From: Candidatus Hydrothermus pacificus
Lineage (GTDB): Bacteria; Hydrothermota; Hydrothermia; Hydrothermales; Hydrothermaceae
NCBI GenBank assembly: GCA_002011615.1
Contig: MTOH01000001.1
Span: 211,327 to 275,326 of the forward strand
Direction: 5' to 3'
DNA length: 64,000 nucleotides
Translations under genes and position numbers: made by a program
Notes under the pieces: model-generated
The model's input: only the letters and a program-made list of their open reading frames with translations
What the model was told of the DNA's origin: nothing
The model's database searches: none
Shown: piece after piece, positions 46,302 to 60,181 of the stretch
Layout of the letters: each line of letters opens with the position of its first letter
How positions within the stretch are numbered: position 1 is the stretch's first letter

Positions 46302-46336
46302 TTTCGGGGGTGTAGCTCAGTGGGAGAGCACTGCCT
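46302..46336 (+). repeat. attL: tRNA-Ala 5' fragment (tRNA nt 1 at 46306)
   Basis: tttcGGGGGTGTAGCTCAGTGGGAGAGCACTGCCT, identical to 60107-60141. Confidence 0.95.
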
Positions 46337-46385
46337 GTTTGGTTTAATGAACATATAAAATTCTCTTTAGATATATAAAAATTCT

Positions 46386-46643
46386 TTATAAACCCAAAAT
46401 AATTGGTGATGGTAGGGGGTGGTGGGGTGGGAAAAGATTTTTTGTTATGGCGTAATGAAAAATTACTTGTTTTTCTCTGTCTTTTAATCTTCTAAAACAC
46501 GAAAAACATACTATCCGAATATTGTATCGGAACGGTAAAGGATTTGAAAATTTCTTTTTACACTCAGTACACTCAAATTTTTCTTCTGTTTTATATTGCA
46601 ACATTTTAGCCATTAAAAATACATTTAAAATAAATCTCTTCAT
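46386..46643 (-). CDS. Small Zn-finger-like protein
   Basis: CTEC...CFSC. Confidence 0.45.
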   Translation of the reverse strand: MKRFILNVFLMAKMLQYKTEEKFECTECKKKFSNPLPFRYNIRIVCFSCFRRLKDREKQVIFHYAITKNLFPPHHPLPSPIILGL

Positions 46644-46840
46644 TTTTCCAGAATATCTTCCAGAATTTTAATTAAATATTTTCTTCCTTCTTCTGTTTGC
46701 AGATCCTGGAAGAATCTTCTTCTCTGATTTCTGGTTAATCCCTTTTGAGTCAGTTTTGCATCTACTTTTCTTAAAAGCTCTATAAAGTTTTTTAATTTTT
46801 TTCTCATTCTATATTTTTTTATTATTTTCAGAATTGCCAT
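46640..46840 (-). CDS. Small basic hypothetical protein
   Basis: ORF overlapping both neighbours in the leftward run. Confidence 0.45.
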   Translation of the reverse strand: MAILKIIKKYRMRKKLKNFIELLRKVDAKLTQKGLTRNQRRRFFQDLQTEEGRKYLIKILEDILEK

Positions 46841-47322
46841 CTCACACCTATCCCCGGGATAAAATTTTTATCTTTAAAATTATATTGGACAAAAAAACTC
46901 AAAAATTTATATGAAAGTCCTATATGAATATTGGAGAAAGTAATTCCTGCAAAAACCTCTCCATATTTTTCTTTTTTAGGACCTTTAAAAATGGATTTAA
47001 AAATAACTTTTTCTTTTTGAAATATTTTATATTCAAAATTTCTAAAAGTATCCGCTTCAAACTGAATTTCAAGAAGTGAATCCCGATACTTAAAAAGTTT
47101 CCATAAAATAGGTTTATATATTGTTTCCTGTTTTGCGGACGGTATTTTAATAATTTGAAATTCATAATAGGGTATGGTATCCTTAATCGGTTTAATTTTT
47201 TCAACCATAACCGGGATTTCAATTTCAAATTTCGGTTTAATTAAAAAAGAATAAATCAAAAGCCCTGTTAAAAGACCGAGTATAAATCCGTATAGAAATC
47301 TAAAAAAGCGAGATTTGTTCAA
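46828..47322 (-). CDS. Membrane-anchored protein with C-terminal beta-strand/aromatic end
   Basis: N-terminal TM (FLYGFILGLLTGLLIYSFLI); ends GIGVRWQF. Confidence 0.55.
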   Translation of the reverse strand: MNKSRFFRFLYGFILGLLTGLLIYSFLIKPKFEIEIPVMVEKIKPIKDTIPYYEFQIIKIPSAKQETIYKPILWKLFKYRDSLLEIQFEADTFRNFEYKIFQKEKVIFKSIFKGPKKEKYGEVFAGITFSNIHIGLSYKFLSFFVQYNFKDKNFIPGIGVRWQF

Positions 47323-47845
47323 TTGATTCCCTCAAGTCTTCAAGTTCAATATTTAGATATATTTTAAGAAATGAATATCCTGAGTGTCCCAAAGCTCTTC
47401 TTACATTCTCAAGATTTTCTCCTTTTTTCAGGAGCATTGTCGCAAAATAATGTCTGAATACATGTGGGTTAAGTCCGTATTTCTGATAGAATAAAAAGAC
47501 TGCCTGTCTTGTGATATTCCATATTTTCCCTTTTTTCTCTTCTTCTGGAAACTTCAAAAGAGCTTCATAAACTTTTGAATGTAGTGGTATCTCCCTGGTT
47601 ATTTTCTCTCTTTTTTTAAGCTGCACTACCCAGGCGGTTCTTTCTTCAAAGTTGACATCTTCCCACTTTAAGGAGAGTGCTTCTGAAATTCTGAGACCCT
47701 GTAATATTAAAAATCTTGTTAATGACCAGTATTTCCATCTTTTTAAATCTTCAGGGTTCTCGCTGTACCATTCCTCAATTTTTTTAATTGTTTGCCTAAC
47801 CCTTTTTAATTTTTGCAGTATTTCAGGTTTTAGATGGTATTCCAT
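47300..47845 (-). CDS. Small tyrosine recombinase (catalytic domain only)
   Basis: GLRISEAL, HVFRHYFAT, LGH, IY: complete R-H-R-H-Y set in 181 aa. Confidence 0.88.
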   Translation of the reverse strand: MEYHLKPEILQKLKRVRQTIKKIEEWYSENPEDLKRWKYWSLTRFLILQGLRISEALSLKWEDVNFEERTAWVVQLKKREKITREIPLHSKVYEALLKFPEEEKKGKIWNITRQAVFLFYQKYGLNPHVFRHYFATMLLKKGENLENVRRALGHSGYSFLKIYLNIELEDLRESIEQISLF

Positions 47846-47858
47846 GAGATTTCAGGCA

Positions 47859-47890
47859 GGGGGGGATAGGAAATTTCCCCCCCTTTTTTT
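47859..47890 (+). terminator. Intrinsic terminator on the plus strand
   Basis: GGGGGGGA-taggaaatt-TCCCCCCC-TTTTTTT. Confidence 0.75.
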
Positions 47891-57945: not shown

Positions 57946-58361
57946 GACCCACCTCCTGCTCTAATTTTCAGGAGTTCTCTGGGGTTTTTAGCGACCCCGG
58001 AAACTCCTGTATCAGAAAAAAAATATTTCCGGAATTTTCCGGGTTTAATCACCCACCAATAACTCACTTTTTCTCCTGTTTTAAAAACAAAAATTCTTCC
58101 TTTCGGATTAAATTCATTCCATGCCTGTTTATAAGAAAAAGCAAAAGTCAGTTTAGAATTTTCAAGGAATTTTCTTGGATCCGAAATATACCACCATTTT
58201 TCTTTATTCAAATCCAGGACAATCTTATTAGGATAGGCATAGAAATTATCATAACAGGTTTTACATATATATCCTTTTTTCTCTACTCTAAAAAATTTCC
58301 TTTTAATTTCGATAATTTCTCTTCCAATGGACCTCATTCCACACAGATCACAGAGTTTCAT
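57942..58361 (-). CDS. Zn-finger-like hypothetical protein
   Basis: CDLC...CKTC; overlaps the integrase stop. Confidence 0.55.
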   Translation of the reverse strand: MKLCDLCGMRSIGREIIEIKRKFFRVEKKGYICKTCYDNFYAYPNKIVLDLNKEKWWYISDPRKFLENSKLTFAFSYKQAWNEFNPKGRIFVFKTGEKVSYWWVIKPGKFRKYFFSDTGVSGVAKNPRELLKIRAGGGS

Positions 58362-59887
58362 TTTCTAATTCCTTTTTTATCTTCAAGTTCCTTTAATTTT
58401 TTTACATTATAAATTTCCATAATCAAATGGTTTACAAATTCAACCATTGGATTTCTTTTATTTTCTCTTAATGGGTGGATATATCCTTCGGTACTGTGAT
58501 ATGATACCCATCCTCCCAATTCTTTAATGATTCTCATTGGAGTCCCCATATCCTCTGCTCGTGTAGCCCAATTATGTCTGAAATCATGAAAATAAAAATT
58601 CTCTATTTCACATTTTTTCAAGAATTCATTATAAAACCATTCGGTAAATCGTCTTTGTTGATATCCTGTCTGAAAGTCAGGGAAAAGCATATCAGAACCT
58701 TTTGATACAGATAATAAAAACATAGCGAGTCCATAAGGGATTTCAATTTTTCTTTCTTTCCCTGTTTTTGTAATATCAGATGTAAAATGAATCATTCCAT
58801 ACATTTTATCATCAATTTTAACAATTCTCACATGTTCCTTTCTCAGTTTAAAAATTTCTTCTTTCCTTGCTCCGGTAAAGAGCCCAATCCATAAAATTCC
58901 TCTTTTCTGTTTATTTATTCTATCATCAGGTAACTCAAGAGTTGCCTTTAGAAATCTTATGGTTTCCTCATAAGATAGAACTCTCTTTCTTCTTTTTTCT
59001 TCAAATTTCCTCTCTTTTAGAATTTTATCTGCATAATTAATTCCTGTAAAATATCCATTTCTCAAAAGGTAATTCCACACTGCATTTAAAAATTTCAACT
59101 CACTTTTAATTGTTGATTCAGTAATGTATTCTCCTGTTTTTTCACTTTTATCTTTAAGTCTTTCGTTGATGTAATTTTCCAGGGTGATCTCATTAATTTT
59201 ATACCAAGGGAAATCTTCTCCCCATTTTTTAAAAAATCCGCTTAATCTATGGAAAAAATATCTTAATTTCCCGAGGTCTTGTTTCCTGGAGAAATGATAT
59301 TCAGCATAGATTTTCACTCCTTCTCCGAATGTCAAATCTCTTTTATTTTTTATCTTTTCCCTTGCAATTTCCCGTGCAAAAGCCTCTGCCTCTTCATAAG
59401 TGTCAAAAAGATATGATTTAACTTTTCCTTCTTTTTTTATCTGTATTAACCACTTCCTTCCATGCTTTCTAATTTTCGGCATTCTTTTATCCAGTTTATG
59501 AATTACAGGTTTTTTGGATTCCATCTTAGGGGTTCTTTCATACTTTATCTTTTTTTCTGCCTCTTTCAAAATCTCTTCTTTATATTTTTCTGCATCTTCT
59601 GATATTTTAAGTTGTTTCTCAATAACCATTTTTATTCCTGCCTTCCATGCGGTTTTATAATCTTCAAAAAACATCCTTTTTCTTATTCTTTTTCCTGTTT
59701 GTGGATCCTTTCCGAGTTGAATTTCCACTCTCCATTTTTTACCTCTTCCTGTTTTATAAGGTGTAGGTATTCTGAGCCATTTAAGACCCATAATGAGATG
59801 CTTTCCGTCCTGTGAAATTTGATATTCCTTTCCCTTATACCTTACAATATTATTATGGATTTCAATTTCAGGAAGTTTTTCTTCCAT
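58358..59887 (-). CDS. Tyrosine integrase with two N-terminal arm-binding-like domains
   Basis: TGARKEEI, FHDFRHNWAT, LGGW, TEGY; KWRVEI...RKRMFF and KWLIQI...SYLFDTYEEAEAF. Confidence 0.93.
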   Translation of the reverse strand: MEEKLPEIEIHNNIVRYKGKEYQISQDGKHLIMGLKWLRIPTPYKTGRGKKWRVEIQLGKDPQTGKRIRKRMFFEDYKTAWKAGIKMVIEKQLKISEDAEKYKEEILKEAEKKIKYERTPKMESKKPVIHKLDKRMPKIRKHGRKWLIQIKKEGKVKSYLFDTYEEAEAFAREIAREKIKNKRDLTFGEGVKIYAEYHFSRKQDLGKLRYFFHRLSGFFKKWGEDFPWYKINEITLENYINERLKDKSEKTGEYITESTIKSELKFLNAVWNYLLRNGYFTGINYADKILKERKFEEKRRKRVLSYEETIRFLKATLELPDDRINKQKRGILWIGLFTGARKEEIFKLRKEHVRIVKIDDKMYGMIHFTSDITKTGKERKIEIPYGLAMFLLSVSKGSDMLFPDFQTGYQQRRFTEWFYNEFLKKCEIENFYFHDFRHNWATRAEDMGTPMRIIKELGGWVSYHSTEGYIHPLRENKRNPMVEFVNHLIMEIYNVKKLKELEDKKGIRK

Positions 59888-59940
59888 TTTAAGCCTCCTT
59901 TAATTCCGGAGGTAAAGGATTCGAACCTTTTACCCTCCGG

Positions 59941-60032
59941 AAAATTTGTTTACCTTTTTGTTTACTTCCTAAAAAACATAAAACTTTCATTTTCAATGAT
60001 TTTTAAAAAATTTGTTTACCATTTTGTTTACC
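59941..60032. repeat. Candidate integrase arm-type sites: two pairs of TTTGTTTAC(C/T)
   Basis: 59945 and 59957; 60011 and 60023; 12-bp period within each pair. Confidence 0.7.
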
Positions 60033-60063
60033 ATAAAAAATTTATTAAAAATTTCATATTCAC

Positions 60064-60093
60064 ATTATACAGTTTTTTTTCTTTATTTGTCAA
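60064..60093 (-). promoter_or_regulatory. Consensus sigma70 promoter for the integrase operon
   Basis: Minus strand TTGACA(60093)-N18-TATAAT(60069-60064). Confidence 0.75.
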
Positions 60094-60110
60094 GTGTTTT
60101 ATGGATTTTC

Positions 60111-60181
60111 GGGGGTGTAGCTCAGTGGGAGAGCACTGCCTCGCACGGCAGGGGTCAGGGGTTCAAATCCCTTCACCTCCA
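60111..60181 (+). tRNA. tRNA-Ala (probably CGC); anticodon loop is 6 nt as sequenced; contains attR
   Basis: Acceptor GGGGGTG/CACCTCC with G3:U70, discriminator A, D-arm GCTC/GAGC, T-loop TTCAAAT; CCA not encoded. Confidence 0.88.

Follow-up and report, generated by a model that had tools for sequence, protein, structure and literature searches.

A 13.8-kb element in Candidatus Hydrothermus pacificus that duplicates the 5' half of tRNA-Ala(CGC), and the integrase family that shares this architecture

The DNA analysed here is a 64,000-nucleotide stretch of Candidatus Hydrothermus pacificus (assembly GCA_002011615.1, contig MTOH01000001.1, positions 211,327 to 275,326; hereafter the window). 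It contains a 13.8-kb element that is a site-specific insertion in the gene for tRNA-Ala(CGC) and that has duplicated the 5' half of this tRNA. The best overall explanation is probably insertion by a lambda-like integrase that replaced the tRNA gene's 5' half, with strand exchange at the inner edge of the duplicated block.

The element is bounded by an exact 35-bp direct repeat, TTTCGGGGGTGTAGCTCAGTGGGAGAGCACTGCCT, which is the only such repeat in the window and is far above chance expectation (for the coordinates of this and other features, see Table 1). As described in a first-pass annotation of this DNA, the repeat runs from 4 nucleotides (nt) upstream of tRNA position 1 to the first base of the present anticodon loop. 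The left copy (attL) is a bare tRNA 5' fragment followed by unrelated AT-rich DNA. The right copy (attR) is the start of the tRNA, followed by tldD/pmbA, and this tRNA-tldD order is also found in all four sister-genus genomes. An empty site is present in the sister-genus genomes G001 and G004, where the left flanking gene, tRNA-Ala(CGC) and tldD/pmbA are directly adjacent. The left flanking gene encodes a QRPTase-like protein that is 82-83% identical to its sister-genus ortholog (79-84% for tldD/pmbA). Repeat mapping and the empty sites thus agree with the annotation in that the 5' half is duplicated, the opposite of the usual arrangement. An element-free site in the same species was sought using the flanking proteins, and this search returned occupied sites only.

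The DNA immediately 5' of the left copy, TATAAT box included, is similar to that found 5' of the intact tRNA ortholog in the sister-genus genome G002. Because of this resemblance, the promoter-like site attached to the fragment (TTGATT-N18-TATAAT) is taken to be host DNA that was left with the fragment, as had been proposed. In G001 (L003, approximately 1560-1575), the QRPTase-like gene overlaps tRNA-Ala(CGC), its stop codon falling within the first bases of the tRNA, and there is no intergenic tRNA promoter at this position. At the other end of the element, a promoter-like sequence (TTCACC-N16-TAAAAT, 60172-60199) overlaps the 3' end of the tRNA; it could drive tldD, as the tRNA promoter is now 13.8 kb away.

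Both junctions were recovered independently of the assembly used here: attL in the Joint Genome Institute (JGI) contig L278 and attR in the JGI contig L271. A Logan contig of the element ends 30 nt into the repeat, as is expected of an assembler with k=31. This recurrence excludes an assembly artefact, an option that the annotation had left standing. The junctions in independent assemblies, the empty site in relatives, the integrase gene adjoining the junction and the like architecture at five other loci leave a negligible probability that the fragment is either such an artefact or a chance partial tRNA duplication without an att site.

The gene that adjoins attR is transcribed away from the tRNA and encodes a 509-aa protein. 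This protein is assigned to the tyrosine recombinases/phage integrases by its PF00589 match and its catalytic residues: R341, K374, R437, W460 and Y469 are invariant and H434 is nearly invariant among 11 homologs. In an AlphaFold2 model (mean pLDDT 77), two modules, each a beta-sheet plus a helix, are predicted ahead of the core-binding and catalytic domains. The best Foldseek match of this model is full-length lambda Int, with low TM scores. No arm-domain match was found in Pfam, and a sequence search of the integrase against PDB gave no match. Based on the model, we infer a lambda-like integrase with candidate arm-type sites. The putative sites are four TTTGTTTAC(C/T) repeats, arranged in two pairs, with counterparts at the same place in the related loci L024, L187 and L266. 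The L266 counterpart (3540-3615) consists of five tandem 12-bp TTGTGACAATGA repeats between the integrase promoter and start codon.

The integrase promoter is a perfect TTGACA-N18-TATAAT on the minus strand; reading from it, the TTTGTTTAC repeats are followed by a hairpin and then by the ribosome-binding site. This long hairpin (59906-59940) lies just 5' of the ribosome-binding site and contains GGTTCGAATCC, the tRNA T-loop consensus. In L024, a hairpin of different sequence is found at the same place. The integrase open reading frame (ORF) is intact in the integrated state, with attP situated 220 nt 5' of its start codon.

The integrase family is small: only about a dozen proteins share 41% identity or more with the integrase of the window. 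In a search of the phylum (272 genomes), the integrase was found in three other genomes, one of which belongs to the order of the window genome (a metagenome-assembled genome [MAG] of Candidatus Hydrothermales, now Caldifarciminales in NCBI taxonomy). A single-protein scan of genome contigs with the integrase found no relatives. When genome, viral and metagenome contigs were scanned with profiles, nearly all matches were distant generic integrases, the only family members being L027, L186 and L187.

Collecting homologous integrases and their att sites had been proposed as a check, and the sites collected have the same 5'-half polarity, with blocks that end at nt 31-33. At all loci with enough flanking sequence, the integrase gene is divergent from the tRNA and the tRNA 5' half recurs at the far end. 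Five independent insertions, each in a different tRNA gene, have a repeat that extends from 1-4 nt 5' of the tRNA to nt 31-33: Ala-CGC in the window (35 bp, -4 to 31/32), Val-GAC in L021/L022 (37 bp, -2 to 32), Thr-CGT in L025/L187 (36 bp, -3 to 33), Ala-GGC in L026 (34 bp, -1 to 33) and Thr-GGT in G024 (35 bp, -2 to 33). In L268/L269, the integrase gene is divergent from tRNA-His and the contigs do not reach the far end. As read from their sequences, these loci have the arrangement expected of tRNA 5'-half targeting, in which the fragment remains on the host promoter and the rebuilt gene lies at the far end.

L266 is an unintegrated attP-type junction: its tRNA 5' half is flanked on both sides by element genes (in the order small recombinase, ORF, attP, promoter, integrase) and is identical to the tRNA-Thr of G024 from -7 to nt 32. 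The contig behind L024 contains one attL and, at the contig start, an attP-like junction, which share at least 79 bp. This fits either a tandem array or a mixture of integrated and circular forms. A plain free circle was rejected for this contig, as the rest of it shows the integrated state together with an attP-like junction.

These sites show that the attP of the element carries a copy of the tRNA 5' half, which begins a few bases before +1 and ends where the anticodon-stem 5' strand ends. Integration therefore leaves the 5' fragment on the host promoter at attL, and the gene at attR is rebuilt from the 5' half of the element and the 3' half of the host, beside the integrase control region. 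We propose that the element, of approximately 13.8 kb, was inserted into tRNA-Ala(CGC) by its own lambda-like integrase. Strand exchange would occur at the inner edge of the block (approximately nt 26-33), comprising the anticodon-stem 5' strand and the first loop bases. We consider this location, which is neither the D-loop nor the classical 7-nt anticodon loop, to be somewhat favoured by the sequence comparisons that follow.

The inner edge is constant, falling at nt 31-33 in every site over five tRNA species, with integrases that are 41-57% identical to that of the window; the outer edge is ragged, falling anywhere from -1 to -7. A fixed inner edge and a wandering outer edge are the pattern to be expected if host DNA extends outward from the exchange point. 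Furthermore, the block is identical to each host's own anticodon-stem strand (CTGCC, CCACG, CTTCC, GCGCA and GCAGG). Such an exact match would be needed to rebuild the tRNA only if exchange takes place 3' of that strand, which favours the inner edge. In the four full-size attPs, an alignment shows that the block is directly followed by an invariant TGT and, ten bases further on, by a TG; in the window, the TGT is formed by the last base of the repeat (T) and the first two bases of the flank GTTTGGTTTAATG. On the element side, this TGT/TG flank may thus serve as a core-type site. An anticodon-loop (class I) sublocation was rejected: identity ends at nt 31-33, so that only 0-2 loop bases are shared and the 7-nt anticodon loop therefore cannot be the overlap.

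The annotation had placed a complete tRNA at the far end of the element; a tRNA is indeed located there, but it is not complete. ARAGORN identifies a single tRNA in the window, at attR, and calls it tRNA-??? with a 4-base anticodon. In an Rfam alignment, one anticodon-loop base is absent (CTGCC-TCGCAC-GGCAG), compared to 7-nt loops in all four sister-genus orthologs (CTCGCAC, TTCGCAA and, in two, TTCGCAC). Since L271 carries the same 6-nt loop even though its tRNA differs from that of the window elsewhere, the deletion is real and present in at least two strains. Furthermore, the window tRNA has CCCTT where L271 and all orthologs have CCCCT, a change that converts a T-stem G-C pair to G-U in the window only. 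Otherwise, the tRNA-Ala set of this genome consists of GGC and UGC, with no second CGC copy. Judging from these sequences, the rebuilt tRNA is probably decaying, dispensable and likely dead, and GCG codons are presumably read by tRNA-Ala(UGC) instead.

The conserved sequence 5' of the attR tRNA is the integrase promoter, which lies on the opposite strand. tRNA-His is usually encoded by a single essential gene; some tRNA expression is therefore presumably restored in the family overall. In the window, the tRNA seems to have been lost rather than re-expressed. The 1-nt loop deletion sits exactly at the edge of the identity block, a further point in favour of exchange there. As a speculation, the observed attL and attR would both result if a 6-nt attP overlap paired with a 7-nt attB overlap and the heteroduplex were repaired to the attP form.

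Several observations weigh against this location of the exchange. In neither attP nor attB are nt 26-33 surrounded by a dyad, and no dyad other than the D-stem occurs in all of the sites. The TGT flank is missing from the three small remnant elements (L025, L026 and G024). A simple conservative exchange cannot create a 1-nt deletion: none of the schemes that we tried, with equal overlaps of 6 or 7 bp, yields a 6-nt loop, and the deletion may have arisen separately, by slippage in a short homopolymer. Within the element, no sense-strand promoter with at least 9 of 12 consensus matches was found 5' of the attR tRNA. Finally, core half-sites can lie inside an identity block, so that an overlap in the D-loop, with its right half-site placed at nt 22-32, also fits the block length.

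This last arrangement is close to that proposed in the first-pass annotation, a D-loop-centred integration site in which the 7-nt D-loop is the overlap, GCTC/GAGC and the neighbouring bases form inverted core sites and the block ends with the right half-site. The shared D-stem dyad speaks for it, as does the sequence TAGCTCA...GAGC, which is common to all target tRNAs and could explain switching between tRNA genes. The annotation had described GCTC-AGTGGGA-GAGC as the only dyad inside the repeat; the repeat also contains CAGTG-GGAGAG-CACTG, a dyad with 5-bp arms. Overlap length is normally fixed among related enzymes, whereas the D-loop spacer would vary among these homologous integrases: it measures 7 nt in the window and 11 nt in tRNA-Val, with four targets at 8 nt. 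If exchange occurred in the D-loop, nt 22-33 of attP would reach only the useless fragment, yet they track the host anticodon stem in all five insertions. The identity block extends 10-12 nt beyond the D-arm in every family site, and exchange in the D-loop would leave both the TGT flank and the nt 32 deletion without explanation. The D-loop has precedents in the literature: a review of archaeal integrases keeps it open for IntpTN3, which targets a tRNA 5' half (PMC8371274), and a preprint proposes a D-loop sublocation for Klebsiella islands at the 5' end of arg2 (10.1101/2020.11.02.365908), although the Klebsiella repeat ends in the D-loop and the block described here is 10-12 nt longer. Taken together, these comparisons make a D-loop-centred site unlikely.

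Exchange could also occur elsewhere in the block, for instance within the acceptor or D-stem region, or its position could vary, as reported of some archaeal integrases; the block would then be a recently captured piece of host tRNA. Identity that reaches 1-7 nt 5' of +1 suggests such a capture of host DNA, and as all of the repeats are exact, they carry no positional information. Random capture would not, however, fix the inner edge at nt 31-33 across five tRNA species, and we regard this explanation as doubtful. A broader proposal would accommodate exchange in either the anticodon-stem 5' strand or the D-arm: an asymmetric tRNA sublocation of mirrored polarity, in which the element takes the promoter side of the tRNA and tldD, the orphan promoter fires antisense to the small-recombinase module and the loop deletion is the footprint of unequal overlaps. 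This combination is offered tentatively.

The insertion is of a real, rare and already known kind, in which a tRNA gene is entered in its 5' half. According to PMC6563490, elements recombine considerably less often with the 5'-distal part of tRNA genes than with the 3' part, the examples cited being Zhao & Williams 2002, TKV4 and pTN3. From its title and the text citing it in PMC6563490, the Zhao & Williams case, a bacterial element (J Bacteriol 184:859), resembles the window in this rare orientation. For the pTN3-like integrases of Thermococcales, Cossu et al. 2017 (PMC5495485) give attB as the 5' half of tRNA-Leu; 41 bp of identity are insufficient in vitro, and the minimal site is Leu2-44. 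The review leaves the cleavage position for this type open between the anticodon loop and the D loop (PMC8371274). The pTN3/TKV4 type is like the window in its tRNA 5'-half attB and in that the rebuilt tRNA is separated from its own promoter (PMC5495485; PMC8371274). In contrast to the window, it is of SSV type: attP lies within the int ORF, int is split upon integration and the tRNA is co-oriented with int. Its 41 bp of identity include the anticodon, whereas the block in the window stops before it. The int gene of the window is intact and divergent from the tRNA, its product has lambda-like N-terminal modules (predicted) and the host is bacterial. An SSV/pTN3-type mechanism was rejected, as the 509-aa ORF is intact when integrated and attP lies outside it.

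The Klebsiella pneumoniae islands inserted at the 5' end of arg2, as described in the preprint, which terms this a new sublocation (10.1101/2020.11.02.365908), share with the window bacterial tyrosine integrases, insertion 5' of the tRNA and repetition of the acceptor 5' strand and D-arm. Compared by site only, they differ in that the Klebsiella repeat stops in the D-loop and that of the window extends further, to nt 31-33, taking in the anticodon-stem 5' strand. The D-loop sublocation as defined for arg2, with a block ending in the D-loop, does not describe the window and was rejected. Class I anticodon-loop integrases (PMC8371274) are also tyrosine integrases with a block edge at the anticodon arm, but they supply the 3' part of the tRNA and use a 7-nt loop overlap with the stem as inverted repeats. 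Relative to these, the window shows mirrored polarity, with just 0-2 loop bases in common between the two sites.

Table 1. Features of the element and its insertion site (window coordinates)
Feature	Position	Strand	Basis and remarks
Promoter-like site of the host tRNA, TTGATT-N18-TATAAT	46261..46290	+	Read from sequence; attached to 5' fragment
attL repeat copy	46302..46336	+	tRNA-Ala 5' fragment at 46306-46336; junction also in independent contig L278
Integrated element body, approximately 13.8 kb	46337..60106	.	Bounded by the repeats; missing from the empty sites of G001 and G004
Element-side flank GTTTGGTTTAATG	46337..46349	+	Alignment; candidate core-type (C') integrase site
Short second tyrosine recombinase of 181 aa with the catalytic domain only	47300..47845	-	Pfam PF00589, E 7.7e-22; Xer-like by NCBIfam
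Tyrosine integrase, 509 aa	58358..59887	-	PF00589, E 6.4e-13; adjoins attR
Four TTTGTTTAC(C/T) repeats, two pairs	59945..60032	+	Candidate arm-type integrase sites
Integrase promoter, TTGACA-N18-TATAAT	60064..60093	-	-35 box 14 nt from the repeat; motif also in L021, L026 and L024
attR repeat copy	60107..60141	+	Junction also in independent contig L271
tRNA-Ala(CGC) with 6-nt anticodon loop and T-stem G-U pair	60111..60181	+	ARAGORN, Rfam, orthologs, L271; probably non-functional

The element is likely a provirus or an integrative plasmid. In addition to the integrase, it encodes a short tyrosine recombinase, which has a counterpart in six of the seven related elements with gene tables and none in the 3.4-kb remnant L025. 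In related elements, this gene is located either beside the large integrase gene or across attP from it; its product could resolve multimers or serve as a partner subunit. Other products identified by Pfam are a transglutaminase-like protein, a glucosaminidase, a PaREP1-domain protein and an HNH protein. Many element proteins are without any match, and a PHROGs search with ten of them gave no meaningful match. An array of 11-bp TTTAATCGC-like repeats (49211-49332) is located where the leftward and rightward operons of the element diverge and looks like iterons or a partition site.

In the tRNA-Val element of L021, a weak Pox_A32/AAA-like ATPase match (18203-18763) lies beside the gene for a 359-aa protein (16473-17552). 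This gene pair is suggestive of a tailless virus that encodes a packaging ATPase; no Pox_A32/AAA-like ATPase was detected in the element of the window. The two elements co-occur in metagenome 3300002532. L267 (GCA_044343585.1) is a 10-kb contig that contains element genes only and is binned in a MAG labelled Aenigmatarchaeota. As it encodes a glucosaminidase, it is probably a misbinned bacterial element. To the left of the element, 41705-45073 encodes an 1122-aa ribonucleotide reductase large subunit with an intein that has a LAGLIDADG domain, assignments based on Pfam matches to the identical gene in L278.

Neither the orientation nor the D-loop idea is new. What is new is a bacterial, putatively lambda-like family with a consistently reversed orientation and a block that ends just before the anticodon. 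Replacement of a tRNA 5' half together with its promoter is rare, and the exchange point has so far been mapped in no system. The family is compact, uses at least six target tRNA genes and offers clean attL/attR pairs together with empty sites and unintegrated attP junctions, which makes such mapping tractable. A cost of the reversed orientation is visible in the window, where the rebuilt tRNA has apparently decayed in this lineage.

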